Positions 3,039 to 55,496 of a stretch of 64,000 nucleotides of DNA are shown one piece after another. Made by a program: the position numbers and the translations under genes. The stretch's first letter is position 1; every line of letters starts with the position of its first letter. Source of the stretch: a virus (Duplodnaviria; Caudoviricetes); IMG/VR virus record IMGVR_UViG_3300036802_000112, positions 64,001-128,000 of that record, one strand, 5' to 3'. A model generated the notes under the pieces. The model saw only the letters and a list, made by a program, of their open reading frames with translations, made no database searches and had not been told where the DNA came from.

Positions 3039-3089
3039 AAGTTCAAGCAAGTTATGTATAATGGTTTGAGAGGAAGAGAGGGAGAAGTA

Positions 3090-3818
3090 ATGCAAGTTAC
3101 AGGGCAATTAAAAGACATCAATAAATTACTAACAAAAGCAATTCAAGATTCATCGGCATTTATTTACATGGAGCCGCCTAACAAATCATTGATGATGGAC
3201 TTAGATGGAAATGGATATACATTCTTATCAAATGGTATATTCGTCTCGCATCCTATCGTTTTAAGTTATTCGGCATTCGTTAATTTAAAAACGATGTTAT
3301 CTTTATTTAGAAAGCAACAGAAGAATCATGGTAAAAAATTACCTAACTCTTCTACATTTACGATTACAAATAAAGATATAACACTTTACGGAAACGGAGA
3401 GTCAACATCATTAGAATACGAAACAAATGCAGTTGTGTTATCGTACGACAATCCAATGTCTCGTAGGTTAGCGTCTTTGTCTCAAGGATTACTCGGGAAT
3501 CAAACTGAGTTCATTAAGATGAATACGAATGATTTAAAACAGTATGTCATTAAATCTGAAAACAAAGGCAAAGAATATATACTCACAATCCGAGAAGGTG
3601 ATGTAGTATTTGATGGAACAGAAGTGAAATTCCCAATAGTTTCTAATATAACAGATGGGCATTTTATTATTCCGAAATCGGATTTGGATTACATACTTCG
3701 TGCCGGACATACAATCGCTTCGACAGAAGTTGCATTCATTTTGTCGAAGAAAATGATAGTGATAGAATTATATAGCGGAGAAGAGTTATTGTGCAAAATA
3801 CACAAAAGGCATCTATAG
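3090..3818 (+). CDS. Hypothetical protein, possibly sliding-clamp-like fold
   Basis: About 240 aa with a clamp-like alternating beta/alpha pattern in a replication gene cluster; weak resemblance only. Confidence 0.35.
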   Translation: MQVTGQLKDINKLLTKAIQDSSAFIYMEPPNKSLMMDLDGNGYTFLSNGIFVSHPIVLSYSAFVNLKTMLSLFRKQQKNHGKKLPNSSTFTITNKDITLYGNGESTSLEYETNAVVLSYDNPMSRRLASLSQGLLGNQTEFIKMNTNDLKQYVIKSENKGKEYILTIREGDVVFDGTEVKFPIVSNITDGHFIIPKSDLDYILRAGHTIASTEVAFILSKKMIVIELYSGEELLCKIHKRHL

Positions 3819-39971: not shown

Positions 39972-40997
39972 ATGGAAAAGGAAATTATTAACTTTTATGA
40001 AGTATTAGGTATTAAAACAACTGCGGATGCAAAAGAAATTAAGAAAGCATACAGAGATTTAGCGAAGAAATATCACCCTGATGTTAGTGATGTTGTAGAT
40101 GCGAAAGAGAAGTTCCAAGAAATTCAGGAAGCTTATGAGATTCTAGGGAACGAAGAGAGCAGAGAAGATTATGATGCTGCACTAAAGGATCATGAAGCAA
40201 GAGTGGAAAGAAGCAAAGTGAAGTTTACTGATGTATTCCGTTCTTTCTTCACGAGTTCTGCTAATGCATTAAAAGCGTTAGATGGAAAGGATGTTGAAGT
40301 TACCGTACTCTTTACAGTAGAAGATGCATTCAAAGGAACTGAAAAAACCTTTGAATACAATCGTTTTAAATCTTGCCCTGATTGCAAAGGACACGGCGTT
40401 ATCAGTGAAAACTTAACTCCTTGTTCTGATTGTGATGGAAAAGGCGTAACACCAAAAATGATTTTAACACCGTTTGGTAAACTACAGTCTTCCGAAGAAT
40501 GTAAAAAATGCAAAGGTACCACGTATAAGAAACATTCTCCTTGTGAAACATGCATGAGAACAGGGAAAGTAACAAACAAGTCTAAAATCAAAATAGAAGT
40601 TCCAGCGGATGTTTATCATGGCAAGCAAATGATTATACATGGTCGAGGTGAATTAGGTATTCGTGGTGGATCAACAGGAGACTTAATCATCACATTCGAA
40701 CATTCACCAAGCGATGTGTATAAATTGGAATATGATTACGACATTGTTAAGAAGTTGACGATTCCTTTAAAGACAGCACTTTTAGGAGGTGAGGCTCAAG
40801 TAATAAAACCGAATGGCGAAAAAGAAACCGTTAAAATACCAAAGGCTACGTCAAATGGTTCTCGACTTGGACTAGGTAACATGGGATTATTGAATGAGAA
40901 AACAAAGCAGAGAGGGCTATGCTACGCTGAATTGGTAGTAGCGATGCCTACAGATTTATCACAATCGGAACTGAATAAGATTGGTGATATCTTGTGA
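39972..40997 (+). CDS. dnaJ: DnaJ (Hsp40) co-chaperone
   Basis: J-domain with HPD; four CxxCx(G)xG-type Zn repeats; C-terminal substrate-binding domain. Confidence 0.92.
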   Translation: MEKEIINFYEVLGIKTTADAKEIKKAYRDLAKKYHPDVSDVVDAKEKFQEIQEAYEILGNEESREDYDAALKDHEARVERSKVKFTDVFRSFFTSSANALKALDGKDVEVTVLFTVEDAFKGTEKTFEYNRFKSCPDCKGHGVISENLTPCSDCDGKGVTPKMILTPFGKLQSSEECKKCKGTTYKKHSPCETCMRTGKVTNKSKIKIEVPADVYHGKQMIIHGRGELGIRGGSTGDLIITFEHSPSDVYKLEYDYDIVKKLTIPLKTALLGGEAQVIKPNGEKETVKIPKATSNGSRLGLGNMGLLNEKTKQRGLCYAELVVAMPTDLSQSELNKIGDIL

Positions 40998-41013
40998 TAG
41001 GAGGAAGAGAATC

Positions 41014-42294
41014 TTGACTACAACTTATTTGACGGGTGTGGAATTATATGATTTCCGCACCCACTCTAAAACAAAAATGAAATTCACAAGAGATATGAAT
41101 GCTCTTGTTGGTTCTAGTAGTGCTGGTAAGAGTAATGTTATACGTGGAATCATTTGGAATATTTTGAATGAACCTGCTGGTAATGACTTCATTAAACAAG
41201 GGAAGTCAGAAGCTTGTGTTATTACACATTGGTCCAATGGTTACTCTATTGAACGAGCTAGAAATAAAAGCGGAACAAAAAACGTATACATCGTACACAA
41301 AGATGGTGAAGTAGTTAACGAGTACACTGGTTTCGGAACTGGCGTACCACCTGAGGTTACAGACATTCATGGTATTAGACCTTTAGCGAACGGTGTGTAT
41401 TTCAACTATGCAAACCAATTAGAATCAGCATTCTTATTATCTGAGTCTCCAAAGGTTCGTGCTGAAGTTATTGGTAACTTAGAAGAATTGGGTCGTATTG
41501 ATGAAGAGTTAACGAAAATCAATAGTGACATTAAAGCTGATAAAAAGTTATACAAAGTAATATCAGAAGAAGTTGCTAGTTACAATACTTCTATAGAAGA
41601 GTTAGAAAAGAAAATCGAATTAAAAGCACAGAAAATCGAAGTGCTCAAAGAGTTTTGTGGTAGCGTAGAAGAACAAGAACGCATTCAAAATACGTTATCA
41701 AAACACAACGAACGCTTAGCAACATTAACAGAAGAAATTAATCAAGCAGCTCGCACAGTCATGACAGCGAATAAGATATTAGAAAACTGGGATGACAACT
41801 TAGAGAGCAATATTCAAACGTATCGTAAATTAGAAGGTTACGTAAGTCGATTAGGAGAAATACAAGTTGAAATGAGTTCTATTTCATTCTTAAAAGATGA
41901 GGCATTATCAGAACTAATTAGATTATGCGAGGAAACAGAAGGCTCCATGCAATCGTTCCAAGCATTCTCTAATTACGCAAAACGCTTAGAAGGTATTCAT
42001 GATTCCAGACAACGAATAGAATCTCAAATGCCTTCTGAGAGAATTGCGAGTATGAATTTTGATGCATTAGATAAAGATATCGAACATTTCCGATATGTAC
42101 AAAAACACCTGAGTCGATTACAAGACATCGATTCGGAAGTAGTGCGTAATAAACAAGAAACAGAAAAGGCTACAAACGAAATCGTCAACCTAGTAGATAA
42201 ATTAGTGGAACTACTACATGATGAAAAAGTATGCCCAACTTGTACGCAAACAACAGAAAACATTACAACAGAACAAATCAAACAATTAGTATAA
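41014..42294 (+). CDS. SbcC/Rad50 N-terminal half (Walker A, coiled coil, Zn hook)
   Basis: DFRTH, GSSSAGKS Walker A, Q-loop, coiled coil ending in CPTC; TTG start with AGGAGG. Confidence 0.85.
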   Translation: MTTTYLTGVELYDFRTHSKTKMKFTRDMNALVGSSSAGKSNVIRGIIWNILNEPAGNDFIKQGKSEACVITHWSNGYSIERARNKSGTKNVYIVHKDGEVVNEYTGFGTGVPPEVTDIHGIRPLANGVYFNYANQLESAFLLSESPKVRAEVIGNLEELGRIDEELTKINSDIKADKKLYKVISEEVASYNTSIEELEKKIELKAQKIEVLKEFCGSVEEQERIQNTLSKHNERLATLTEEINQAARTVMTANKILENWDDNLESNIQTYRKLEGYVSRLGEIQVEMSSISFLKDEALSELIRLCEETEGSMQSFQAFSNYAKRLEGIHDSRQRIESQMPSERIASMNFDALDKDIEHFRYVQKHLSRLQDIDSEVVRNKQETEKATNEIVNLVDKLVELLHDEKVCPTCTQTTENITTEQIKQLV

Positions 42295-42312: not shown

Positions 42313-42564
42313 ATGGCTACAGAATATGCAAAAATCAAACAAGCGGTGGAATTACAAAAGACAAAGAAAGCAACAGGAGAAGCTAGACTAGTTTCGTTAA
42401 GTGAAGAAGAAACTCGTATTTATGCAGATATCGAACGTGAAACAGGAAAGAAAGTAACATCGAAAGAAGAATTAGAAGTAATGAACGAACAATCACAAAA
42501 GGACATCGCAGATAAGATTCGTAAAATGAAAGAAATCTTAGATGCGGAAGGAGTGGCGTATTAA
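42313..42564 (+). CDS. Small coiled-coil protein, probable middle piece of split SbcC
   Basis: 83-aa helical ORF between the two SbcC halves. Confidence 0.55.
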   Translation: MATEYAKIKQAVELQKTKKATGEARLVSLSEEETRIYADIERETGKKVTSKEELEVMNEQSQKDIADKIRKMKEILDAEGVAY

Positions 42565-43217
42565 TGGAGGTTGCGACGTTACCAACCAACAAGGAAGTGA
42601 TTCGTGCTGCCAAGGATATGATCCAGCAGCACGAACAAGATTTAGTTGAGTTAGAACGATTAAAAGTGGAGTTAGTTAGAAAGACAGCGCAACGTGACGA
42701 AATCACACCTCGTATTGAATTACTAGAAAAGGTACGAGTATTCATGCAATCATTAGCGGAAGCGACTCGTGATGAAATCATGTCAGGTTTACAACACGTT
42801 GTTACGATATGCTTACAAAGTGTATTCGGGCCACACCTTCGCTTTGAAATAGAAGTAGAAACAAAACGAAACAATACAGGAATCGAGTTCTACATTGTGG
42901 ATGAATCAGGAGATGTGCCAGTACGATTAAAACCAGAAGGTAACATGGCTGGTGGAGAATTAGATACAATCTCTATTGGTTTACGATTCGGATTACTGAA
43001 AGTATTAAACCCTTCTCCAGAAGGACCAGTATTCCTTGACGAACCAGCTAAGATGATTTCGGGAGATAGAGTACATTCTATTGCGAATCTCTTAAAAGAG
43101 CTGTCTAAGATGTTTGATAAACAAATCATCATGGTATCTCACCACGAAGCATTAATTGATGTTGTAGACAATTCTATTTATTTCAAAAGAGAAAACGGCG
43201 TAACGGTCTGCGAATAA
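42564..43217 (+). CDS. SbcC/Rad50 C-terminal half (ABC signature, Walker B)
   Basis: MAGGE signature, VFLDEP, MVSHH. Confidence 0.85.
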   Translation: MEVATLPTNKEVIRAAKDMIQQHEQDLVELERLKVELVRKTAQRDEITPRIELLEKVRVFMQSLAEATRDEIMSGLQHVVTICLQSVFGPHLRFEIEVETKRNNTGIEFYIVDESGDVPVRLKPEGNMAGGELDTISIGLRFGLLKVLNPSPEGPVFLDEPAKMISGDRVHSIANLLKELSKMFDKQIIMVSHHEALIDVVDNSIYFKRENGVTVCE

Positions 43218-43608: not shown

Positions 43609-43661
43609 TGAAGAGTGATGATAAAATCACTCTTTTTATTTTGTGGAAATGAGTCGAAAAG

Positions 43662-43679
43662 TTGTTATAAGTAAAGTGA
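43662..43679 (+). promoter_or_regulatory. Conserved phage promoter motif, copy 4
   Basis: TTGTTATAAGTAAAGTGA exact match. Confidence 0.75.
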
Positions 43680-43721
43680 AGAAAGAAACTATACATAAAT
43701 AAAAAATTGGAGGAACAAAAA

Positions 43722-44216
43722 ATGACAAACAATACAATGGATTACAACGAGGAAGTAGTAGAAATGGTAGAAAATGAAGAAGTAGCAGCAACAACAAATA
43801 ACGAAGATGGAGTTGAAGAAGTAGTGGAAACAGGAAACAATAACCAAGGATTAAAATTAATCGGAACAGCAATTGGTTCAGCAGTAGCAGGAGCAGTAAC
43901 AGGATGGTTTGGAAGAGGTGCATTAGAAAAACGCAAAAGAGAAAAAATGTTTGATGAAATACAAAAACAATTATATCTAATTGAAGCATCAGCGCAAGGA
44001 CACGAAGAAGTAGAATGGGATGGAAAACTTTATACAACAAAAGGGATTCATGTAATGACAACAGAAGAATTAAAAGCTTATATCATGGATAGAATTTTAG
44101 GAAACATGAAAGTGAAAGATTACGAAAGACAATTATGGAACAATCTATTAACAACAATAGTGACAGTTGAAGAAAGAATTATTATCAACAGCAAAATTGT
44201 AGTAGACGAGAAATAA
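43722..44216 (+). CDS. A-rich early gene, single-TM protein
   Basis: GGAGG RBS; LIGTAIGSAVAGAVTGWFG helix. Confidence 0.65.
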   Translation: MTNNTMDYNEEVVEMVENEEVAATTNNEDGVEEVVETGNNNQGLKLIGTAIGSAVAGAVTGWFGRGALEKRKREKMFDEIQKQLYLIEASAQGHEEVEWDGKLYTTKGIHVMTTEELKAYIMDRILGNMKVKDYERQLWNNLLTTIVTVEERIIINSKIVVDEK

Positions 44217-44220
44217 TACG

Positions 44221-44260
44221 AAACAACAGATACAGTAATGTATCTGTTGTTTACTTTTTT
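44221..44260 (+). terminator. 14-bp perfect hairpin terminator
   Basis: AAACAACAGATACA-gtaa-TGTATCTGTTGTTT plus T tract. Confidence 0.75.
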
Positions 44261-44294: not shown

Positions 44295-45338
44295 ATGAAA
44301 ATGGAACGAGTTAAAGGACTATTATTTGAGGTAGCAAAGAGTAATATGGATACGAGATTACAAGGGTTCTTCATTGATCCAGATAAAGGTATGGCACTTG
44401 CAGGGCACAGAAGAATTTACGGTCATGGCGATTGCTTAGTACGTGCAATGGGTGATTTTGATATGCCACAAAAATACGGATACCGTCCAGGATACTATGA
44501 TTATAGTAAAGATGATTTCTATGCAGATCAACCAGGTCTTTACGGAAAGCAAGTTGAGGGAGACAGATACATGGTTGGACCAGAAGAATCTGATATGATT
44601 TTCGGTCAAGCATTCGAAAAAATCGAAGACGGTTTCTCTGTATTAGTAAACCCAAAAATCATTTGTGAGTTCATTGAGAATTTCACAAAATTCAATGGCT
44701 TTGCAAATAAGAAATTAAATATGCAAGTATTTAACGGAATGTCAAATGTAGGTCATTTCACTGGAAGAATCGAAACGAATCCAAATACAGGTGAAATCGG
44801 AATTGTTATCGCCAATAAATACTTCTGCCATATTGATAAAAAGTACTCTTTACTTAACCCTGACCACATCAGAGAAGGTGCTTATGTAGTTGCGGAAATG
44901 GTAGGAGTTGTGGAAGAGAAACGTGTAGTTAGATTACTTCGTATGTTCAAAAGTGGCATCCGACTTGCGATTCAGGATTTCAGAAATGGATTGATGTTAG
45001 ATAATGCTGCACCGTATTCTTTACATGAAGAAACAGATAACGGAATCACAAAACAAGGAATTATGGATGTTCCGTTCTTAGAAAGACAGTTTGACCCTAA
45101 TGATCCACAAAGCCAAAATGCATACTTGAAAGCTCCTGTATTACATTTTGACTTAGATACATTCTACCGTGCATTAAAACCAATGGAAATGCATAGAGTA
45201 GCTGAAATCCATTTTAAAGATTGTATCTCTCCAGTTATGATGCGAACAATTAACGAAGGAGAACCAGGAGAAATTGCGGTAGAGTCGTTGATAGGAACGT
45301 CGTCTCCGTATAGAAGAGGAAAGGTGTGGACTCCGTGA
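44295..45338 (+). CDS. Putative beta-sliding-clamp-like protein
   Basis: C-terminus LHFDLDTFYRALKPM...EIHFKDCISPVMMRT...ESLI resembles DnaN domain III; 347 aa. Confidence 0.45.
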   Translation: MKMERVKGLLFEVAKSNMDTRLQGFFIDPDKGMALAGHRRIYGHGDCLVRAMGDFDMPQKYGYRPGYYDYSKDDFYADQPGLYGKQVEGDRYMVGPEESDMIFGQAFEKIEDGFSVLVNPKIICEFIENFTKFNGFANKKLNMQVFNGMSNVGHFTGRIETNPNTGEIGIVIANKYFCHIDKKYSLLNPDHIREGAYVVAEMVGVVEEKRVVRLLRMFKSGIRLAIQDFRNGLMLDNAAPYSLHEETDNGITKQGIMDVPFLERQFDPNDPQSQNAYLKAPVLHFDLDTFYRALKPMEMHRVAEIHFKDCISPVMMRTINEGEPGEIAVESLIGTSSPYRRGKVWTP

Positions 45339-45694
45339 TGAGGTATCAATTAATAACAGGAGAAGGAGATATAAACCGCAAGCTCGGCGTAGACTTACAT
45401 AAAGTCTATAGCCGGGCTTGCGCGGGTTTTAACCCGTTAACGTATCTACCTTCAGATTATGTACCGAATTTTGAATCTCTGTATGAGGAATATTGTGATA
45501 TGTATATCCAAAAAGTAACCGATGCAGATTCATTTTTCGAATCAATCAAAGAGATGGCTACCTCGGAAGGGGGTGATAATGTAAGTGGTAGTATTGTAGG
45601 GAAAGCAGAATTCCTGAACATTTTATTTATGACCAATCACTTGTTTTTCTTAGATGGCGAATTGATGAATTCGATAGTACTGGAGGTATGGTAG
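45338..45694 (+). CDS. EVW-family paralog 1
   Basis: MRYQL...LMNSIVLEVW. Confidence 0.8.
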   Translation: MRYQLITGEGDINRKLGVDLHKVYSRACAGFNPLTYLPSDYVPNFESLYEEYCDMYIQKVTDADSFFESIKEMATSEGGDNVSGSIVGKAEFLNILFMTNHLFFLDGELMNSIVLEVW

Positions 45695-45697
45695 GAG

Positions 45698-46066
45698 ATG
45701 GTAAGGAACGATGAGTTAGCGGAATATATGTATGGAATAGAAGAAGCAGAAGCAATAACAATGTTAATTGATATTTATAGAAATATAGCAATATCATCAG
45801 AAATAACAATTCCTGATATTGACATTCTATACAATATTTTTAGAGAGCGATGGGTGGATAAAACATATGACTTCGTGGTTGCAAATGCAGATGCATATGC
45901 ACTCGATTTAACTGAATTTACAAAGACAAATTACATTTACAAACTCGAAGAAGTTGGTTTTGTAATATTAAAAGTAGACGATGTGCACGACATATTGAAT
46001 CGGATGCAATTTTCGTTTCGTAGTAAAGAAGAAATATGGAATACAGCGGTGATAGAAGTATGGTAA
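45698..46066 (+). CDS. EVW-family paralog 2
   Basis: Ends IWNTAVIEVW. Confidence 0.8.
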   Translation: MVRNDELAEYMYGIEEAEAITMLIDIYRNIAISSEITIPDIDILYNIFRERWVDKTYDFVVANADAYALDLTEFTKTNYIYKLEEVGFVILKVDDVHDILNRMQFSFRSKEEIWNTAVIEVW

Positions 46067-46461
46067 GTTATGGACTTTCAACAAGAATTGATGAAGAAAT
46101 AAGCTCGAAGATTGACTTCGAGCTTATTTCTTCTATTTACAAAGAATTAACAGCTATGTATTACGTACCTAGTTCCGAGGCTATTTTTAATCATTATAAT
46201 ATGGTATTGGAACATAGATTAACAGAACTACAGGCCACGTTATATCCAGATGATGTTTATGAAGGGAAGCCAGGACAAGCGTATTCTCCAACCGTCCTTC
46301 CTGATTACGTGACAGCAGATTTACAGCAATACATACATATGGAGCCTGTAACTTTAGAAGACGTAGAATCATGTTTAGAATGTTATCACTTGTTCTTCAT
46401 TAGGGAAGAAAGAGATTATCAAAATGAATATATTAACCCAATTATATTAGAGGTGTGGTAG
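46060..46461 (+). CDS. EVW-family paralog 3
   Basis: MVSYGL...YINPIILEVW. Confidence 0.8.
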   Translation: MVSYGLSTRIDEEISSKIDFELISSIYKELTAMYYVPSSEAIFNHYNMVLEHRLTELQATLYPDDVYEGKPGQAYSPTVLPDYVTADLQQYIHMEPVTLEDVESCLECYHLFFIREERDYQNEYINPIILEVW

Positions 46462-46473
46462 GGAGAGAATATT

Positions 46474-46875
46474 ATGTTGCCAAACGTGTTAGTTGAACAT
46501 TCGGAGTTGTTAATTAATGATATGCAAATGTTTATATTTCAAGAATATAAATTGATTTGGGATGAATGTATATCGAAACGAAGAACGGAAGTTCCTTCAA
46601 TATATACGATTGCAGAACGCATTTACGAGGTTCTACAAGACAAAATCACAAAGCTGCTACAGGCTAAGTATACATTTAATATCGATAACTTCAACGAAGA
46701 AGATTTCCAAAAAACCGTGGCAATATATTCATTTTGGTTTGACCAAAAGACAGAAGGTAATGATTACATATTTGAATCTTTACTTCATGAAATGACTAAA
46801 TTTTTCTGTTTGCATCAATTATTTCACGAAAGGGATGGGGAGTTAATAAATCAACCTATCTTGGAGGTGTGGTGA
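46474..46875 (+). CDS. EVW-family paralog 4
   Basis: Ends LINQPILEVW. Confidence 0.8.
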   Translation: MLPNVLVEHSELLINDMQMFIFQEYKLIWDECISKRRTEVPSIYTIAERIYEVLQDKITKLLQAKYTFNIDNFNEEDFQKTVAIYSFWFDQKTEGNDYIFESLLHEMTKFFCLHQLFHERDGELINQPILEVW

Positions 46876-46877
46876 TA

Positions 46878-47243
46878 TTGTATGAACTGATAAACCCATT
46901 GGATGTTATCGGTAACTTAGCTTATGTAGCGCTTAATTCAACGTATTTATTTATCGTTTCGGAAAGATGTTATAACCCAAATCATATACCTACGATTGAA
47001 ATGATTCACAATCACTTTGTGGATCATTTCATTCAAGAGTTAGTGTTAGAAGTTATACAAAGAGAAAGTTTCGAAACATTAGGTGCTGATGATTTAGACG
47101 ACTTCTTACATCAAGTTAAGAACAAAAAATACCATCCGTTTATACCTGACATTATTGAACTACGAAATATGTTAGAAGCATGTTATATGACTTTTATAGA
47201 GGACGGTGAAGTTCATAATCCAATTATTGTGGAGGTGTGGTGA
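46878..47243 (+). CDS. EVW-family paralog 5 (start may be 46869-46878)
   Basis: (M)YEL...VHNPIIVEVW. Confidence 0.8.
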   Translation: MYELINPLDVIGNLAYVALNSTYLFIVSERCYNPNHIPTIEMIHNHFVDHFIQELVLEVIQRESFETLGADDLDDFLHQVKNKKYHPFIPDIIELRNMLEACYMTFIEDGEVHNPIIVEVW

Positions 47244-47662
47244 TGTATCAACTTATACATCAGAATGACCGGAAAAAGAGCGCTTTAGAAGAATCAGCAG
47301 AAGCCATATTTTATTCAGTATACGGAGAGTTAGGAGAAGCAATACTGGATGAATTGTTTGGAGATTACCCGTATATCTTTATAGGGGATTTAGTAGATAA
47401 AGTGTATCAAGAATTGTATTTCGAGGAATACACAAACTTAATAGATGAATCAATCTTGAGAGGTGATCACGAAATATATGCACTATCAAAAGATGATTAT
47501 ACATTACAAGTATACGGAGGAAATATCGGTTTATATTATGAACCTGCTTTTGAAGTGTCTGATATAAAAACAATGATAAGTCAAATGTTGTGCGAACAGA
47601 ACATAGCATACTTAGATTATGACTTCACGATGCAAAATGAAATTATATTAGAGGTGTGGTAA
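47243..47662 (+). CDS. EVW-family paralog 6
   Basis: MYQL...MQNEIILEVW. Confidence 0.8.
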   Translation: MYQLIHQNDRKKSALEESAEAIFYSVYGELGEAILDELFGDYPYIFIGDLVDKVYQELYFEEYTNLIDESILRGDHEIYALSKDDYTLQVYGGNIGLYYEPAFEVSDIKTMISQMLCEQNIAYLDYDFTMQNEIILEVW

Positions 47663-48126
47663 TGGTCAATGTAAATGAATTAATGCTTATGAATCCAGAT
47701 GACATTGTAGGTATTATGGATGCTATGAATTTAATAACAAAGGAGACATTCGATAGGTTCGTCACGTTATTAACACATTGGTACAAAAGAGAATCACTGA
47801 TGGAAGATAACATTCCAAATTTATTTCCAATCTTCCAGATGACAGATCCAATCATAGACGACTTATGCGAAATATTTATAGAGAGTATAGGGTGGAGGGA
47901 GTTGGGAGAACAACAGATGACTCATGAATTCGAACGGAATCCGGAAGACAAACTAATTATCAAGAATCAATTTGTCGATGGTTACGATTCGGTATATTCA
48001 ACAAACATGGTCAGGGATACAGAACGAGTTTTTAATTCTATGAACCTTGTACATAGATGGGATTCTACATATGTAGGAGGTAAAGATAACTTAGTAACAG
48101 GAGGAGTTGTATTAGAAGTATGGTAG
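47662..48126 (+). CDS. EVW-family paralog 7
   Basis: Ends TGGVVLEVW. Confidence 0.8.
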   Translation: MVNVNELMLMNPDDIVGIMDAMNLITKETFDRFVTLLTHWYKRESLMEDNIPNLFPIFQMTDPIIDDLCEIFIESIGWRELGEQQMTHEFERNPEDKLIIKNQFVDGYDSVYSTNMVRDTERVFNSMNLVHRWDSTYVGGKDNLVTGGVVLEVW

Positions 48127-48557
48127 GTACATATGCATTATCAGTAGAAACGGAAGAAATAGAATACGATGTAATCAAACCACAATACGTATCATGGTTT
48201 GAAAGGGTAATTATGAATTGGTATCAAGAGTTCGGTAGGTTAACCCCCAAATACCTACCGACTGTTGTGGATATTTTAGATGATAGCCTTCATCCAATAG
48301 GTGGAACTGCATCAGAAGCATTCGCTCTTTTAGAACAATCTGTTCAAGTTGAGTTTTGTGGTATTGATACATTTCCAGAAGACTTAGGGAATTGGACAGA
48401 TGACCACTACTTATACTTTGAAGACCAAGTGGATTTAACTGATTACGAAGTAGATTTATTTAAAGATATAGAGAAACTGTTAGAAACGAAAGGATTAACA
48501 TACTCTAGATATAACCCCGAAACAGCGCAAGTATCAAGTGTAATCGAGGTGTGGTAA
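48120..48557 (+). CDS. EVW-family paralog 8
   Basis: MVGTYAL...VSSVIEVW. Confidence 0.8.
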   Translation: MVGTYALSVETEEIEYDVIKPQYVSWFERVIMNWYQEFGRLTPKYLPTVVDILDDSLHPIGGTASEAFALLEQSVQVEFCGIDTFPEDLGNWTDDHYLYFEDQVDLTDYEVDLFKDIEKLLETKGLTYSRYNPETAQVSSVIEVW

Positions 48558-49001
48558 ATGTATCAATTAGCGGTTAATAATTACAGTGAAGTGCCATTTA
48601 AAATAGTAGATAAGGACCCGGGAACCGTGCAAGAATTCTTCTTTTTAATTTCTGGATTGTATCATGACTATTGTATGTGCAGAGAAGACCTCCCTAGTCC
48701 AAAAGACATGCTAGAAGAAGATCGTAATTTTTATCCAAAATCAAACGAAACAGTAAACGGATTTTTAGATGGTATGATTCATGAAATGATGCATAGACGA
48801 AATACTTTCTTAGATGATTTTATAGAAGTATTACCAGAAGACGCGGACACTGATTCTTTAGCTGATTTTTTAGATGGATGTTGGGATGATATGAAGCCTT
48901 ACTATGAGGATGAAATACGTATCGCATTAGAAGTACTAGGATACGCATATAAAGGCGAATGGGGAGAAGTAAGAAATACTTATGTAATCGAGGTGTGGTA
49001 A
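48558..49001 (+). CDS. EVW-family paralog 9
   Basis: MYQL...VRNTYVIEVW. Confidence 0.8.
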   Translation: MYQLAVNNYSEVPFKIVDKDPGTVQEFFFLISGLYHDYCMCREDLPSPKDMLEEDRNFYPKSNETVNGFLDGMIHEMMHRRNTFLDDFIEVLPEDADTDSLADFLDGCWDDMKPYYEDEIRIALEVLGYAYKGEWGEVRNTYVIEVW

Positions 49002-49370
49002 ATGTACGAGATACAAAAGACAGAGGTAGAATTCATCTTTGTGCCGGATGATTTCTACCACACTTTTAAAGATGTTATAAAAACGTGGTATGAAAATTTC
49101 GAATACTGTTTCCCGACACGGATACCAGAGGCACAAATATTTAGTATGGACTACCAAATTGGTTTCGAATTTGAAAGTGGCTTAATATGGTTTGCAGGTG
49201 CAATATTAGAAATTGCGGAACCAGACAATGAATTTGCTTCCATGCATGATTTAAGTGTAATGGAACAGATGTGGTTCGAAGAGGATATGCGTACATTATT
49301 AGATGCAGAAAGTATCACTTATATGTACGACGGTGAACTTAAAAATAGTGTTATTTTGGAGGTATGGTAG
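49002..49370 (+). CDS. EVW-family paralog 10
   Basis: MYEI...LKNSVILEVW. Confidence 0.8.
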   Translation: MYEIQKTEVEFIFVPDDFYHTFKDVIKTWYENFEYCFPTRIPEAQIFSMDYQIGFEFESGLIWFAGAILEIAEPDNEFASMHDLSVMEQMWFEEDMRTLLDAESITYMYDGELKNSVILEVW

Positions 49371-49372
49371 GT

Positions 49373-49906
49373 ATGTATTTAAGTACAGAAGTAGCAAATC
49401 ATGAATTTCAATTTTTCTGTTTAGAAACAAATTCAATAGAAGAAATCACGAAAGATCTTAGAGAAGTTTATAAGGCGATTGTGAAAGAGACTGATAATGT
49501 ACCAAACTTATTCGATATCAGATTGTATAGTTCAAACTTAATCAACTACGTCTTTTTTGAAAGAATCGCCTTAGGGAAGGAAAGTGCCTTAGATTATTAT
49601 ACAGACGGAGAAGGTATTATAGAACACATACAAGATATCATGAAAAGCTATTCGAAAGAAGAATTTCATCATGGAATCGAAAGGTGTATACAAGAATTCC
49701 CAACATTAGAATCTACCGAGGATATAATAGAACTTTTCATGGTTGACGCTTTATATATATTCAATCTGAATCAGTGGAGGTACCACGATATAGAATGGTA
49801 TCCTGCTTACAACATGTTGCTGCTATCGGATAAATTAGGAGACATTTTGAATTCGCAGGGTAAGGTAGAATTCGATGTTAACAATCCAATGATAGAGGTG
49901 TGGTGA
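49373..49906 (+). CDS. EVW-family paralog 11
   Basis: MYLS...VNNPMIEVW. Confidence 0.8.
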   Translation: MYLSTEVANHEFQFFCLETNSIEEITKDLREVYKAIVKETDNVPNLFDIRLYSSNLINYVFFERIALGKESALDYYTDGEGIIEHIQDIMKSYSKEEFHHGIERCIQEFPTLESTEDIIELFMVDALYIFNLNQWRYHDIEWYPAYNMLLLSDKLGDILNSQGKVEFDVNNPMIEVW

Positions 49907-49907
49907 A

Positions 49908-50393
49908 ATGAATCAATTAACATTACTTTCGGATGTTAATCAAGTTATAGACTTCGACTTTTTCGAACACAAAGGAAATAAGTTGGAAGAATTCAAAGAA
50001 GAATTGTTGGGTTCCTATGAACAAGCTTGTGAGTATTGGGTTTATGATGAAGGAGAAGAACAACTTCCCACGCTTTCTGTTATAGGCGATATAGCTTGCA
50101 GGATGTATGTAGAAGAAATTGTGTTTAAATGTTATGCAGATGGATCTATAGCAGGGAATATAGATGTCAGAGAAAATATAGATGAACATCAATGCGACCA
50201 ATTAGATGAAATACAAGACTCTATCCATGATGAGTTCCATCATAATAGAAGTTTCGGAATGGGTATCGGTAACATAAGAGATTACTTCAATGACATCGAA
50301 AAGTTATTGAACTTATGTAACTTAACATATAGAAAGGATGATGATAGAGCGAATATATGCAACGTTAATTCACATGTTGTGGAGGTTTGGTGA
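49908..50393 (+). CDS. EVW-family paralog 12
   Basis: MNQL...VNSHVVEVW. Confidence 0.8.
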   Translation: MNQLTLLSDVNQVIDFDFFEHKGNKLEEFKEELLGSYEQACEYWVYDEGEEQLPTLSVIGDIACRMYVEEIVFKCYADGSIAGNIDVRENIDEHQCDQLDEIQDSIHDEFHHNRSFGMGIGNIRDYFNDIEKLLNLCNLTYRKDDDRANICNVNSHVVEVW

Positions 50394-50860
50394 TGTATCA
50401 ATTACAGACTGATGTAAAGGAGTTTCCGTTACATTTTATACCGAAAGAAAAAACAGAAGCATTCATTAAGGCAATACTGTCTGCATACAAACGTATATAT
50501 ACAGTTATGAGTAAAGTGAGTGGAGTGAATTCATTCCATTACATAGAACCCTGGGGAGACATTGGCGTCTTTCTAGGGGATTTTTATGTAATGGGATGTT
50601 GCTATTACGAGACAGGAGAAGAGTATGCATACGAAAAAGCAGTAGCAAAAATAGATGCTATGGGAGATGATGGCGCATTCGAGTTAAGTGCAATGTATAA
50701 CGACGAGTGTTTTGAAGATTGGAGAAGTGAGTTCATTGATGATATCACAGCGGTTCTAGATATGCACAACTATTCATATTTCGATCCAGCTTCCGACCCG
50801 TACGCTGTCAATCTTGATTGTGTAGAAGTGAACAATACTCATATTATATCAGTATGGTAA
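50393..50860 (+). CDS. EVW-family paralog 13
   Basis: MYQL...VNNTHIISVW. Confidence 0.8.
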   Translation: MYQLQTDVKEFPLHFIPKEKTEAFIKAILSAYKRIYTVMSKVSGVNSFHYIEPWGDIGVFLGDFYVMGCCYYETGEEYAYEKAVAKIDAMGDDGAFELSAMYNDECFEDWRSEFIDDITAVLDMHNYSYFDPASDPYAVNLDCVEVNNTHIISVW

Positions 50861-50874
50861 AGGAGAAGATAAAG

Positions 50875-51348
50875 ATGCAACAATTTATGTTACCACAAAA
50901 CTATGTTAGAGGTTATGATAACGCCCCTTATCGTTTGATATTCAATGTTCCAGAAGATGAGTTTAGAAAAGTTATGCGAGATATTTATATAGCTACTCAC
51001 ACAACGAACAGACCACCATACTTCGAAAGAATTTTATCGGAGCTTATTGAGATAGGTATGTTCTCTCGTGTGTTCTTAGAATACGCCAAAGAGAATCCTG
51101 AAAAATTCGATATGTCTATAAAACGCATAGATGAATTATATTATTGGGTGGTGGAGAAAGGTGTGAATGATGAATCAATTACACAAGAATTATTAAGTTT
51201 TGCAGGGTATTACTTCTGCGAAGAGTTCGAAAACGATATCCGTATCTTCTTGAACGATTTTAATTACAGTTTTTTAGAAAGAGATTATCACCATCAACAT
51301 GCGGATGAAGCTGCAATTAGAAACTCATGTATTATCCCTGTTTGGTGA
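50875..51348 (+). CDS. EVW-family paralog 14
   Basis: AGGAG RBS; ends IRNSCIIPVW. Confidence 0.8.
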   Translation: MQQFMLPQNYVRGYDNAPYRLIFNVPEDEFRKVMRDIYIATHTTNRPPYFERILSELIEIGMFSRVFLEYAKENPEKFDMSIKRIDELYYWVVEKGVNDESITQELLSFAGYYFCEEFENDIRIFLNDFNYSFLERDYHHQHADEAAIRNSCIIPVW

Positions 51349-51397
51349 TATGTGAGTTTTTCTTTTTTAGTAGTGCACAGAGAAGGGGTCTTGCAAA

Positions 51398-52189
51398 ATG
51401 ACATTAGCAATTAAAGACAGTAAATGGATTAAGCGTTTTGACGTCGCTAAACTATTAGAGGATTCTTTAGACATGTCGTATTGGAAAGGGGATGATTGTA
51501 CAAAAGGAGTTTTCTTTACAGATGAATACGGTTACGCATTAAATAAAGTAGTAGCTATACGAGTTCATCATGACGAAGATGCTCCAGAAGTCTTCTACTC
51601 ATTTAATGAGAAGGATGACGAAGAATGTGGACCAGTCGTAACAGAGTATCCATATGAAGAGTTATCGTTATTACCTCGTAAACATCATTTACTATTTGAG
51701 GATACAAAAGTAGAGAAGAAAAATCTAGACAAAGTATTCGAAAGAAAAGAGGTGTTAAAATCAATTCAAATTGAACCGAAAACAATTGTGGAGAAGATCG
51801 AAGAGGAAATTCCAAATAAACGTCAACGTGATCGAACACAGTTGAAAATAAAGGTTCGGGATAACGAAGTGTTGTTTGAAGCACATAAGAAAAAGAAAGT
51901 TACTTTTTCGGAAATCATTAAGTATGATACAATTACAACGCGAGACATTATTGAACTACAACAACCTACATATGATTTAAGTCATTGGGAGACAGATAAA
52001 AAGACCAATGAAATAAACGGGGCAATCAATGCACATACGTTATGCTATTTACTTCATGTGTTTCAGGATTTTAATTCTGTATTTTTGCACTTTGAAGAAA
52101 ATAGAGTTTTTATCGTAGGTAATCCAAATGATGTTAATATAAATGGAACGCCTACAATAGAAGTCGTTGTTAGTTTAATGAAGCTTTAA
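51398..52189 (+). CDS. Second putative sliding-clamp-like protein
   Basis: KGVFFTDEYGYALNKVVAIRV and AINAHTLCYLLHVF..VFLHF..VVVSLMKL resemble DnaN domain II/III patterns. Confidence 0.4.
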   Translation: MTLAIKDSKWIKRFDVAKLLEDSLDMSYWKGDDCTKGVFFTDEYGYALNKVVAIRVHHDEDAPEVFYSFNEKDDEECGPVVTEYPYEELSLLPRKHHLLFEDTKVEKKNLDKVFERKEVLKSIQIEPKTIVEKIEEEIPNKRQRDRTQLKIKVRDNEVLFEAHKKKKVTFSEIIKYDTITTRDIIELQQPTYDLSHWETDKKTNEINGAINAHTLCYLLHVFQDFNSVFLHFEENRVFIVGNPNDVNINGTPTIEVVVSLMKL

Positions 52190-52212
52190 TGTGTTTTAGA
52201 GGAGGAAATGGT

Positions 52213-55200
52213 GTGAGTTGGTACAGTAAGGTTAATAAATATATAGATGATAACTTAATGGATTTCATCAAAGAGTTCTTCGGAGCGAATGCAAATACAG
52301 AGAAAATCGCCAGAGCTATTCGTGTTAGTCCTGCGCCATGTTGTGGTCATAACGATTGTTTCTCATTCGCAACTGAGAAAAATGCATTCAACTGTTTCTC
52401 TTGTAGAAAAAGCGGCAACAGAATTAAATCGTTGCAATACTTATTCGGTAATGAAAAAGACGCGAATAAGGCACTTTCTAAATGGGCAGGCGTTGAGTAC
52501 CTAGAAGATCGTGTATATGACGAACAAACGAGAAAGAAAATGGAGAAGGAAGAAAGACTGCAAGAGTTATATAGAATTGCTATTCTCCATTACACGTTCC
52601 AAATGCAAGACGAAACGGAATCTACGGCTTTAGCTATGCAAACAGGGAAAGAGCATGGTTGTCGTAAACACCAACTTGATTTCCTAAAGAAATATAAAGT
52701 TGGGTATTCAAGTGGTTGGGACTTCCTTCGCAATGCATTAGAAAAATCACCGAAGGGCTTCACAAAAGAAGAAATAGAAGAAGCGAAAAGTTTCATCTCT
52801 ATTCCAGAAGGATACTTTGTTTACCCTTATTATGATAAAGCAGGAAACTTAATTCGTATCAATACTAAATTGTTCGAAAGAAAATGTTTAGGTTCTTACG
52901 ATAGAGATACAGGAAGGTATGGTTACGATTGTGGCTATAGAACAAAAGACCTTTCCAAGAAATCACGAGAAACACATGAGCATCTAAAGAAACATAAGAT
53001 GGCCGGAGATGGTTTTTCACGCGGTGAGAAAACAAATGCATTTTACTTTGATCCAGAATCTATACAAAGAAAGCGATTCGCTATTCTTGTGGAAGGTGAA
53101 AATGATGTAATCTCGGCTGACGAAGAAATGGCAAATCTCCCTGAAAGTTATCGAAGAGATTTCGCTATCATCGGTTTAGGCGGTCAAATGGATGAAGAAA
53201 GTTTTGAGAGTCTATTCCTTCGTCAATTCGAAAAGATTTATGAGTGTTTCGACCACGACGATGCAGGAGATAAATACAGAAATTTGTTAGATGAAAAACT
53301 ACCTGACGTTCCTGTATACTCTATCCTATTCGATGACGATATCAATGATATCGATGCATGGCTTAAATCTCATTTGTATAATCCAGGTGATTTCAAAGAT
53401 GCTATTGATAATGCAGCGTACAGAGATACAAAGCATTATATCATCGAACGAGAAACATCAAAGCACCATTGGAGATTAAAGAACAGACAATTCGAAATTA
53501 CTTTCGATGTTTCCAAAGCGAATCATCAGAAAGGTACCATTGATGGAACAATCAGTGTTTACAAAGGCGGTCAACCTACGTTCAAGAAAACTGGAGATTT
53601 AATGAACACGAAGATTGACCCAGCTTTAAACACAACAAAATTGTTATTCGCAGAAGAAGTAGATAAGTATTACAACGATGTTGAGATGGTAGCGGATAAA
53701 CCGAAGCGTTCGTATTGGGAACTGATTAATATATTTAAATACACAAGTAAACAAAACCAAGTCATTAGACAGTTAGCTTGGTACTTACATCAGAAAGATA
53801 TAAAAGAATTCCAAGCTGCAGCATCAAAACTAGGTGCGTTAGGTCAAGAAGTGAAGGCACAAATTCTACAAGAAGTAAATTCTATAGAAAACCAACAGTT
53901 CGACCCAAACATTACACCGCCAATTATTACGTTATCTCAGTTCTTTAACATTCCAAACAATGACGCTTTCTTCTACTTCTCGAAAATTATTAATGAAGAA
54001 GATGTTACGAAAGCTGTTCCTTGTTTAATAACAAACAAGAAAGAAGAAATCCGTTTGGACCTGATGAAGAAGAGTGATCCGCAAAGTATCTTGCTGATTA
54101 AAAATAAATATCAACTTCCAACTGAAGTTCCGATAACAATCATGAACCAAAATGAAGTTTCTTTACAACGTTATTGGGTAGAACGTTGGAAGAATGAACA
54201 ATTAGATCCTGCGGAGTATGACCCGTCTAAATTAATTAAAGAAATTGAAGATTTCATTAGAGGTTCGTATTACCTGCATGATGATACGTTAAAAGTATTA
54301 TCGTTATGGATCTATTCAACATATTTCTATATGTTATTCCAAAGCGGATTCCCTTACTTATTAATCACCGGGGAAAAAGGAACGGGTAAATCAACTGCCG
54401 ATTTCCTAATCTACTTGTTATCTCTTAATCCTAAGTTTGCACTGCACATGTCGGAATCATCATTATTCCGTGCAATCAGTCAGCAGGGCGGAACGTTTAT
54501 CCTGGATGAGTTAGAGAACCTAACAGACAAGAAATCAGTTGATGGAAATGCATTTGCGACAATCCTAAAAGGTGGGTATTCTAACTTCGGTAGAATTTAC
54601 AGAACAAATATGGAAAACGGTATTGCGATGATTGAGGAACATTCAGCGTTTGGCCCGAAAGTAATTTCAAACATCAACGGATTAGATGATGTAATCGGTG
54701 ACCGTTGTATCTTCATTAAAACTGCGCGTGCACCGGAATCGAAATTGAAATTCTTGAAAGACCCGCAAATTTATAGAGAGCAAGAACGTTCCAAAGCACA
54801 CTCAATCACTTCGAGATGTGTAATATCAGCGTTAGAATACTTCCAAACTGTAAACGAAATTTACAACGATGCAAATAACAAAGTAATGACTGGTAATGCT
54901 CGTCTATCGCAAATCATCTTACCGTTAGTAGCGATGGCTAAATTTGTAGGTGGAGATTACGAAGAAGCTTTAATGCGATTCTACCGCGACGATATCGCAC
55001 CTGTAAAAGAAGAGTTATCTGTTTCTACACAAGAGGGTATGGTTAAGAACATCTTGAAAATTGTTGCACAAGAGCTTACAGGTATCAGAGAATCGAAATG
55101 GGCAACGAATGAAAAGATACACACGCATACTGTTCCAATCACATATCATCGTGAAACTGGCATATTTGAAATGGACTTACTGCACTTTATGGTACTTGGT

Positions 55201-55461
55201 GAAGAATCGAATGACGGTATAGAACTTGAATTGAAATCTTTACGCAATACAATTAAGATGATATTCAAAAGCGCAACCGACTTTAAAAACAGTGCGACAC
55301 CAAAGAATTTAACCATCCATGATGAGTCATTACAAAGAAGGTTAAATAATCAGAAGAACATCAGAACAACGTTATTTAGATTTAACGTCAACGATTATCT
55401 GAGTGAATCAGAAAAGCAAACGTTGCATAATAACTCTGTTCCAGAAACATCACTATTCTAA
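52213..55461 (+). CDS. DnaG-type primase fused to a P-loop NTPase/helicase
   Basis: N-terminal Zn finger (CCGH...CFSC), TOPRIM LVEGEND and CFDHDDAG, GEKGTGKST Walker A, ILDE Walker B. Confidence 0.85.
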   Translation: MSWYSKVNKYIDDNLMDFIKEFFGANANTEKIARAIRVSPAPCCGHNDCFSFATEKNAFNCFSCRKSGNRIKSLQYLFGNEKDANKALSKWAGVEYLEDRVYDEQTRKKMEKEERLQELYRIAILHYTFQMQDETESTALAMQTGKEHGCRKHQLDFLKKYKVGYSSGWDFLRNALEKSPKGFTKEEIEEAKSFISIPEGYFVYPYYDKAGNLIRINTKLFERKCLGSYDRDTGRYGYDCGYRTKDLSKKSRETHEHLKKHKMAGDGFSRGEKTNAFYFDPESIQRKRFAILVEGENDVISADEEMANLPESYRRDFAIIGLGGQMDEESFESLFLRQFEKIYECFDHDDAGDKYRNLLDEKLPDVPVYSILFDDDINDIDAWLKSHLYNPGDFKDAIDNAAYRDTKHYIIERETSKHHWRLKNRQFEITFDVSKANHQKGTIDGTISVYKGGQPTFKKTGDLMNTKIDPALNTTKLLFAEEVDKYYNDVEMVADKPKRSYWELINIFKYTSKQNQVIRQLAWYLHQKDIKEFQAAASKLGALGQEVKAQILQEVNSIENQQFDPNITPPIITLSQFFNIPNNDAFFYFSKIINEEDVTKAVPCLITNKKEEIRLDLMKKSDPQSILLIKNKYQLPTEVPITIMNQNEVSLQRYWVERWKNEQLDPAEYDPSKLIKEIEDFIRGSYYLHDDTLKVLSLWIYSTYFYMLFQSGFPYLLITGEKGTGKSTADFLIYLLSLNPKFALHMSESSLFRAISQQGGTFILDELENLTDKKSVDGNAFATILKGGYSNFGRIYRTNMENGIAMIEEHSAFGPKVISNINGLDDVIGDRCIFIKTARAPESKLKFLKDPQIYREQERSKAHSITSRCVISALEYFQTVNEIYNDANNKVMTGNARLSQIILPLVAMAKFVGGDYEEALMRFYRDDIAPVKEELSVSTQEGMVKNILKIVAQELTGIRESKWATNEKIHTHTVPITYHRETGIFEMDLLHFMVLGEESNDGIELELKSLRNTIKMIFKSATDFKNSATPKNLTIHDESLQRRLNNQKNIRTTLFRFNVNDYLSESEKQTLHNNSVPETSLF

Positions 55462-55463
55462 CG

Positions 55464-55496
55464 AAAAGACCGCTAAGTATACTTAGTGGTCTTTTT
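55464..55496 (+). terminator. Intrinsic terminator
   Basis: AAAAGACCGCTAAG / CTTAGTGGTCTTTT stem. Confidence 0.65.

Follow-up and report, generated by a model that had tools for sequence, protein, structure and literature searches.

A conserved tandem array of 14 acidic phage proteins with a common V-W C-terminus: candidate adaptors for a shared receptor

Three proteins of bacteriophage T4, gp43, gp55 and the 112-amino acid gp33, carry interchangeable C-terminal tails of hydrophobic and acidic character that bind gp45, with flexible linkers (PMC2988020). Clients of PCNA are marked by the PIP-box, Q-x-x-[ILM]-x-x-[FY]-[FY], which in archaea and viruses is often found at the extreme C-terminus, and viral polymerases carry the sequence QxxIxxFF at precisely this position (PMC3201878). 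Here we describe a locus in a tailed virus (Caudoviricetes) at which 14 neighbouring genes encode small, acidic proteins with little central identity that all end in V-W and that may form a set of adaptors sharing a single docking peptide. The locus lies in a window of 64,000 nucleotides corresponding to bases 64001–128000 of the complete 174,193-bp IMG/VR virus record IMGVR_UViG_3300036802_000112, which has terminal repeats. Coordinates given below are those of the window unless another frame is named.

The array spans positions 45338–51348 and comprises 14 back-to-back genes on the + strand (g01–g14; Table 1). Start codons were assigned on the basis of an upstream Shine-Dalgarno (SD) sequence together with the shared N-terminal sequence M-[YN]-[QE]-L. 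With the starts refined in this way, the products range from 118 to 177 amino acids, so that of the size range proposed in the initial annotation (118–180 amino acids) the lower bound stands and the upper is reduced to 177. All 14 proteins are acidic, with net charges of −10 to −23, and aromatic residues (F + W + Y) make up 10–19% of each. The tails are EVW in 12 cases, SVW in g13 and PVW in g14, the same tally as was first noted. Genome-wide, only 14 of the 472 open reading frames (ORFs) of 60 amino acids or more end in VW and all of these are in the array, where ~0.27 would be expected by chance (P ~1e-19). The run of consecutive acidic, aromatic-rich ORFs with VW ends that was originally noticed is therefore real and far beyond chance.

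Pairwise comparison of the array proteins without their tails reveals almost no similarity (best E 0.003), bearing out the earlier remark on their low central identity; identity between paralogs is ~17–30%. On profile evidence, the 14 bodies are nevertheless homologous, even without the tail. In leave-one-out tests using hidden Markov models (HMMs) from which the last 12 residues had been cut, the omitted member came top of ~452 genome ORFs in 12 of 14 trials, with E-values of 2e-7 to 0.06. When applied to an independent, related phage of 175,348 bp (L004; IMGVR_UViG_3300036783_000180), the array profile identified exactly 14 genes in one array (E 7e-21 to 5e-8). A profile search of 1.84 billion representatives returned 55 matches, ~40 of them from outside the window; the non-window matches are 114–177 amino acids long, align up to their own last residue and have [E/G/S]VW ends. 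One of the 55, a 468-amino acid repeat protein, was discarded as a false positive. The skeleton outlined in the initial annotation holds across the family: an N-terminal M-[YN]-[QE]-L, an invariant tyrosine in helix 1 with a proline after it, a last helix and the closing N-x-x-[IV]-[ILV]-E-V-W.

Searches for described relatives gave little. Nothing was found in Pfam below E 0.007 for any of the 14 proteins and no match was common to two members, PHROGs produced a single match to one member (E 0.0074) and the best score of the VW-family profile against PDB sequences was E 0.085. Relatives of the array in cultured phages were not found, nor were cultured-phage relatives of three proteins encoded next to it (the primase and two proteins of 347 and 263 amino acids, here p347 and p263). 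Scans of viral contigs, metagenomes and genomes for further loci turned up only one related phage, L004, and literature searches found no account of such an array. As judged from these searches the VW family is undescribed, with no Pfam or PHROG entry, in agreement with the initial failure to recognise a known family. It had also been foreseen that the family might map to a well-characterised domain, or that the bodies might turn out to be unrelated apart from the tail; no characterised domain emerged, and the bodies (one member of which has been folded) are related by profile.

Across 56 members, the tail can be written N-x-x-[IV]-[ILV]-[E/G/S]-V-W-COOH, with tryptophan present in 56/56, valine in 55/56, asparagine at position −8 in 53/56 and isoleucine or valine at −5 in 47/56. 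Position −3 is E, G, S or P. At the nucleotide level, most junctions between array genes have the form ..GGAGGTGTGG-TGA-TG.., in which the E-V codons (within GGAGGTG) constitute an SD sequence 5–9 nt ahead of the next start, often overlapping the stop. The spacing from stop to next start is −7 to +14 nt at all junctions, and the overlap between p347 and g01 is of the same kind. The E-V codons are the ribosome-binding site of the next gene as well as part of the peptide motif, a dual coding that was missed when the tail was first described as constant. Codon usage reflects this double duty: in the two phages the tail glutamate is encoded by GAG in 14/19 cases, compared with 24% genome-wide (p 7e-6), and the tail valine by GTG in 13/28, compared with 16% (p 1e-4). 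At −3, glycine retains a purine-rich SD sequence, and serine and proline appear where the SD sequence comes after the stop (g13) or where there is no following gene (g14).

The constancy of the tail is not simply a matter of codons. The tail valine codons vary synonymously (GTG, GTA, GTT) and differ in 4/14 ortholog pairs, the asparagine, 24 nt ahead of the stop, is out of reach of any ribosome-binding site, and V-W is kept in g13 and g14 even though their tails hold no SD sequence, the last gene retaining it in both phages. The conservation of the tryptophan, the valine and the asparagine at −8, the synonymous valine codons and the V-W of g14 together indicate that the tail is selected as protein, and to this extent the original claim stands.

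Clues to the anatomy of the proteins come from structure prediction. The AlphaFold2 (AF2) model of g08, made with a 54-sequence family alignment, has a pLDDT (predicted local distance difference test score) of 82 and a pTM (predicted template modelling score) of 0.73. It displays a helical core (helices 21–41, 49–53, 63–80, 94–103 and 106–123), whilst the last 15 residues (131–145) are modelled without secondary structure at a pLDDT of 57 and then 49. In the alignment, the stretch from the last core helix to the asparagine at −8 varies from about 6 to 33 residues. Helical core, low-confidence tail and variable stretch thus point to an arrangement of body, variable linker and terminal short linear motif, and in the g08 model the motif is predicted to be on an exposed, flexible terminus, as in clamp-client peptides. 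The idea of a constant, docking-like tail on a variable body, put forward in the initial annotation, fits this predicted anatomy as well as the 56-member conservation, and we regard the tail as likely to be a shared docking peptide. No match to the g08 model was obtained with Foldseek at E 1e-3 or better in the PDB and BFVD, and the best VIA-align score (Z 5.1, to the winged-helix domain of Stn1) is within the noise for helical proteins.

In the related phage the 14 genes recur in unchanged order and between the same neighbours. Each window gene has one clear positional ortholog there, at 37–62% identity, and second-best scores are five- to tenfold lower; for the flanking genes the corresponding values are 58% (primase), 62% (p347) and 74% (p263). 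Metagenomic members, at ~20–60% identity, can be assigned to the same orthogroups, with 11 g07-like, six g02-like, five g13-like, four g03-like and four g10-like proteins. The one-to-one orthology and the shared metagenomic orthogroups imply that the 14-way split is older than this phage clade and that each paralog has been kept, which argues, at the level of sequence, for an old and stable set with 14 non-redundant functions. This is at odds with the earlier description of an expanded, diversifying family, as the orthologs are 37–62% identical, against 58% for the primase, and the orthogroups are fixed. Nor is there any sign of the copy-number variation for which an HMM search of phage genomes had been proposed: the array has 14 copies in both genomes. 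For these two genomes, ongoing diversification or change in copy number was rejected on the grounds of identical number, order and orthology.

The reading that we favour, with a probability of roughly 0.45, is that the 14 proteins are specialised adaptors or ligands that share one docking peptide for one receptor, most likely p347. Each protein would comprise a compact acidic helical body, different among paralogs and conserved among orthologs and so providing 14 specificities, followed by a linker of variable length and the common motif at its free C-terminus. A single shared receptor would accommodate the motif in a hydrophobic pocket, with the 14 proteins competing for, or exchanging on, one hub. 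That all 14 dock to one receptor we infer from the occurrence of a single tail on many proteins. Translation of the array runs along a tightly coupled chain, the E-V codons acting as the SD sequence of the next gene, and the receptor would most likely be p347, which is encoded directly upstream and is translationally coupled to g01.

Evidence for p347 as the receptor comes from the overlap of its stop with the start of g01, its conserved place upstream of the array in the related phage, the contigs on which the two families are found and its likeness to clamps in the ESM Atlas. A p347 homolog is reported on a 5,468-bp JGI contig, the size also given for the contig of three VW members, and a second is reported on a contig of 108,099 bp, again the size given for the contig of a g01-like member, which suggests that p347 homologs and VW members share those contigs. 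The Atlas model of p347 (pTM 0.64) gives template modelling (TM) scores, by row, of 0.59–0.63 over ~200 residues to archaeal PCNA and viral clusters, with rows for beta-clamp, Hus1 and Rad9 at 0.38–0.45, and the Pfam-named clusters closest to p347 in Atlas features are gp45, beta-clamp and PCNA. p347 is thus a leading but unproven candidate for the receptor of the VW tails, and the model lends weak support to the possibility that it is a sliding clamp.

Were p347 indeed a clamp, the array would act in the manner of T4 gp33, gp55 and gp43, holding 14 different partners or activities at a clamp that sits on phage DNA, as part of the replication module; the position of the operon between SbcCD-like nuclease genes and primase/helicase genes was counted in favour of such a clamp-client reading. 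The more specific proposal, in which p347 is a divergent clamp and the 14 adaptors bind it through a non-canonical, PIP-like V-W-COOH peptide, is a tentative one that we regard as possible but doubtful. It describes a hub-and-spoke system in which each adaptor would recruit to phage DNA, or keep away from it, a different factor of phage or host origin.

The p347 family, with 13 members (alignment A8), is itself undescribed. All members have an invariant C-terminal motif, G-[PT]-T-S-P-[YF]-[KR]-x-G-[KM]-V-[WYC]-T-x-COOH, and the 'KVWTP' end of p347 therefore belongs to this protein family itself rather than being left over from the VW tail. Membership of p347 or p263 in the VW family, as distant relatives, was rejected (hhalign probability ≤0.2%). 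Comparison of p347 with p263 and with a 254-amino acid ORF at 3054–3818 gave no signal of relationship, and an hhalign comparison of its N- and C-terminal halves for an internal repeat was uninformative.

How does the array compare with the systems described at the outset? Like the clamp clients of T4, the array proteins have varied bodies, one short C-terminal peptide and a linker of variable length, they are associated with replication and transcription modules, and gp33 is of similarly small size. Unlike the T4 proteins, which are three in number and unrelated, they form a single array of 14 paralogs from one family; their motif ends in V-W and they have no similarity to gp33 in sequence or fold. 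The resemblance to the PIP-box is one of form: the VW tail occupies eight residues at the C-terminal end with the same 1-4-7-8 spacing (polar at 1, aliphatic at 4, hydrophobic or aromatic at 7 and 8).

A third comparison is with the C-terminal tips of SSB (D-D-D-I-P-F-COOH), T7 gp2.5 and Hsp70 (I-E-E-V-D-COOH), in which the free carboxylate and the side chain dock in pockets of partner proteins. These tips too are acidic and end in a hydrophobic or aromatic residue, and the Hsp70 and VW tails have I-x-E-V in common, in register but with no homology. In those systems, however, the tail of one hub protein reaches many partners, whereas in the array many proteins share one tail, and it is this inverted arrangement that implies a single receptor.

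A number of observations weigh against the favoured reading, above all in its clamp form. The clamp identity of p347 comes from one source, the ESM Atlas. p347 has no match in Pfam, PHROG, NCBIfam or PDB-sequence profiles, and the clamp HMMs PF00712, PF09116, PF00705 and PF02916 have no match in the genome at E up to 1 or 10. AF2 modelling of p347 with a five-sequence alignment reached a pLDDT of only 34 and gave no usable model; its only semi-ordered part, residues 150–220, is OB-barrel-like with Z 5–6, below noise. The genome has no recognisable clamp loader or DNA polymerase, and neither polymerase A nor polymerase B was found. In T4 the polymerase shares its motif with gp33 and gp55, whereas here there is no other phage protein with the VW motif, a whole-genome scan with the strict form N..[IVL][IVLC].[VI]W finding no occurrence outside the array. 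The VW tail departs from the PIP-box in having N for Q, V-W for two aromatic residues and an aliphatic residue also at position 5. With N, I/V, V and W at positions 1, 4, 7 and 8 it falls outside the canonical consensus and is a non-canonical variant at best. Finally, the predicted fold of the array proteins is that of one paralog, g08.

The uncertainty surrounding p347, whose identity is unproven given its AF2 score, leaves some room for a different common receptor, an alternative that we consider unlikely. The candidates are the client-binding C-terminal domain of the phage DnaJ protein (leading on to host DnaK), the beta-clamp of the host, the primase-helicase, and a protease or adaptor from the host, with the 14 bodies being clients, decoys or adaptors of that hub. 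A full-length dnaJ gene is present 4.3 kb upstream of the array, without DnaK or GrpE, and in the related phage, too, the nuclease genes are preceded by a DnaJ-like ORF. Short hydrophobic or aromatic peptides are ligands of DnaJ C-terminal domains, and class B J-proteins bind the I-E-E-V-D-COOH tail of Hsp70; the array tail, I-[L]-E-V-W-COOH, has I, E and V in the register of the Hsp70 tail. Against this, the phage DnaJ resembles class A proteins in having a zinc-finger domain, and it is p347, not DnaJ, that is translationally coupled to the array and apparently present on the same short contigs. Nothing specific points to DnaJ or to any of the other candidates.

Somewhat less probable again is that the array encodes a panel of anti-defence or host-takeover inhibitors, acidic and possibly DNA mimics, each with a different host target, the tail serving for delivery, for instance as an address for packaging or injection. 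The proteins are strongly acidic, small and without known relatives, the operon is of early or middle type, and there is a weak structural row to the acidic immunity protein Tsi2 (Z 4.3). A constant address on a variable body is also the logic of the T4 Ip locus. The T4 internal proteins (IPI–III and Alt) have a conserved N-terminal capsid-targeting sequence that is removed by the prohead protease, and Ip loci vary between phages. The array resembles these proteins in combining a constant short address with a variable body in a phage multigene locus, but the likeness ends there: the address of the array proteins is C-terminal, immediately before the stop, and uncleaved in design, and the array is located amongst replication genes and not in a head module. 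Neither an N-terminal address with a prohead-protease site nor a head locus was found. Arms-race panels usually vary in content and copy number, whereas the number, order and orthology of the array are fixed and its rate of change is close to that of the primase. In addition, the g08 model does not match Ocr, ArdA or other mimics in fold, and there is no sequence match. An inhibitor panel is compatible with the adaptor model and does not exclude it.

It is also conceivable, though we think it improbable, that the 14 paralogs form one defined hetero-oligomer in which the N-terminal M-Y-Q-L strand and the C-terminal tail pair between subunits and translational coupling ensures equal stoichiometry. 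The two ends of the protein are conserved and, in the monomer model, are extended without a pairing strand, the junction spacing is tight throughout the array, and a fixed number and order of subunits would be expected of an ordered assembly. Tight coupling is common in phage operons, however, and a tail of very low confidence behind long, variable linkers is more what one would expect of a tether than of a subunit interface. Least probable of all is that the tail is a mere by-product of nucleotide constraint, with the ribosome-binding site and start of the next gene embedded in each 3′ end: the SD sequences, the over-used GAG and GTG codons and the latitude at −3, with S or P where the tail lacks an SD sequence, explain which codons are used and some of the pattern at −3 but leave the motif unexplained, as the near-invariant V-W, the residues kept at −8 and −5 well upstream of any SD sequence, and the g14 tail, which has no coupled gene downstream in either phage, largely rule this out as the sole cause.

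Table 1 Features of the array and its surroundings in the 64,000-nucleotide window (aa, amino acids)
Feature	Position	Strand	Remarks
DnaJ/Hsp40, full-length	39972..40997	+	Pfam DnaJ 1.7e-24, DnaJ_CXXCXGXG 8.6e-10, DnaJ_C 2.2e-28
Promoter-like motif AAAAnTTGTTATAAGTAAAGTGA	~43657..43679	+	~23 nt; five intergenic copies, 18 invariant columns
169-aa ORF	43707..44216	+	Function not assigned; followed by hairpin 44221-44252
p347	44295..45338	+	347 aa; conserved; stop overlaps g01 start (TGATG)
g01	45338..45694	+	118 aa; ends LEVW
g02	45698..46066	+	122 aa; ends IEVW
g03	46060..46461	+	133 aa; ends LEVW; ATG inside V-W codons of g02
g04	46474..46875	+	133 aa; ends LEVW
g05	46878..47243	+	121 aa; probable TTG start; ends VEVW
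g06	47243..47662	+	139 aa; ends LEVW; TGATG overlap with g05
g07	47662..48126	+	154 aa; ends LEVW; largest orthogroup (11 external members)
g08	48120..48557	+	145 aa; ends IEVW; member folded by AF2
g09	48558..49001	+	147 aa; ends IEVW
g10	49002..49370	+	122 aa; ends LEVW
g11	49373..49906	+	177 aa; ends IEVW; longest linker
g12	49908..50393	+	161 aa; ends VEVW
g13	50393..50860	+	155 aa; ends ISVW; SD of g14 (AGGAGAA) after g13 stop
g14	50875..51348	+	157 aa; ends IPVW; last in array, without coupled gene downstream
Terminator-like hairpin and T-run	51319..51361	+	Over g14 tail codons and stop; 18 pairs, only 3 G-C; weak
p263	51398..52189	+	263 aa; conserved; stop overlaps primase start; 74% identical in related phage
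Primase	52189..55461	+	1090 aa; zinc ribbon and Toprim; terminator 55463-55496

The array is probably part of a larger transcription unit. The five copies of AAAAnTTGTTATAAGTAAAGTGA begin at approximately 3826, 35678, 37811, 43662 and 55802, ~40–50 nt before start codons, and AAAAnTTGTTATAAGTAAAGTGA may be a promoter used by the phage's own transcription machinery. Between the copies at ~43657 and ~55800 lie the 169-amino acid ORF, p347, g01–g14, the weak hairpin, p263, the primase and a strong terminator, and the copy at ~43657 is likely to start this unit. The weak hairpin over the g14 stop may act as an attenuator at the end of the array, before p263 and the primase. p263 has no Pfam, PHROG or PDB match and hhalign detects no relation to p347 or the VW family. 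In both phages the primase (11823–15086 in the related phage) has E-[TK]-S-L-F-COOH as its C-terminus, a sequence that recalls the bacterial clamp-binding pentapeptide Q-L-[SD]-L-F and could possibly represent a second type of hub-docking tail.

Upstream of the unit are SbcD-like and SbcC-like nuclease genes and dnaJ; downstream are two helicase genes. The phage DnaJ protein is of class A type, with a J domain, zinc finger and DnaJ_C domain, and its gene lies between the two nuclease genes, with a DnaJ-like ORF at the same place in the related phage; neither DnaK nor GrpE was found in the phage genome. The SbcC-like ATPase appears to be split into a 437-amino acid N-terminal part (40981–42294) and a 217-amino acid C-terminal ATPase part (42564–43217) with a small ORF between them, an arrangement that the related phage shares.

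The rest of the genome contains a myovirus structural module and most of its proteins are without a library match. Within the structural gene block, a single 2244-amino acid ORF on the − strand (11381–18115) resembles cellular rpoB and then rpoC, at 26–31% identity over 70–84% of its length, and by this similarity is a fused beta/beta-prime RNA polymerase. The RNA polymerase and DnaJ matches that come from phage-labelled records seem for the most part to be genes of cellular type. Shared C-terminal ends are also seen elsewhere in the genome. At genome positions 164423–173816, adjacent + strand ORFs of 356, 608 and 2017 amino acids all end in (R/S)-[AY]-Y-L-E-G, and a 225-amino acid ORF at genome positions 153568–154245 ends in RAYLK, which makes this a further C-terminal motif shared within the phage. 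Two adjacent paralogs of ~1035 amino acids (genome 134259–140498) end in LLMQ[RN][YF] and have different lytic domains, one an amidase/endolysin with an L-Ala-D-Glu peptidase and the other an M23-type metallo-endopeptidase; these are probably tail-associated lysins.

Whatever the receptor turns out to be, the locus is a clear example of dual coding, with a peptide motif and the ribosome-binding site of the next gene on the same nucleotides, and both the VW family, with ~40 metagenomic members beyond this phage, and the 13-member p347 family are undescribed. If the tail is a docking peptide, the array would represent a natural set of 14 interchangeable ligands for one pocket, and with it a clean system in which to study how a hub is shared among many clients, as well as a source of a portable tethering tag. 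If the hub is a clamp, this would give a hint as to how the replisome is organised in a lineage in which neither a polymerase nor a clamp loader can be recognised. And should the hub-and-spoke proposal be true, the array would far exceed any known dedicated clamp-client family in size, would bring with it a new clamp-binding motif, and would tie together replication, repair and transcription in a lineage that has almost no recognisable replisome genes.

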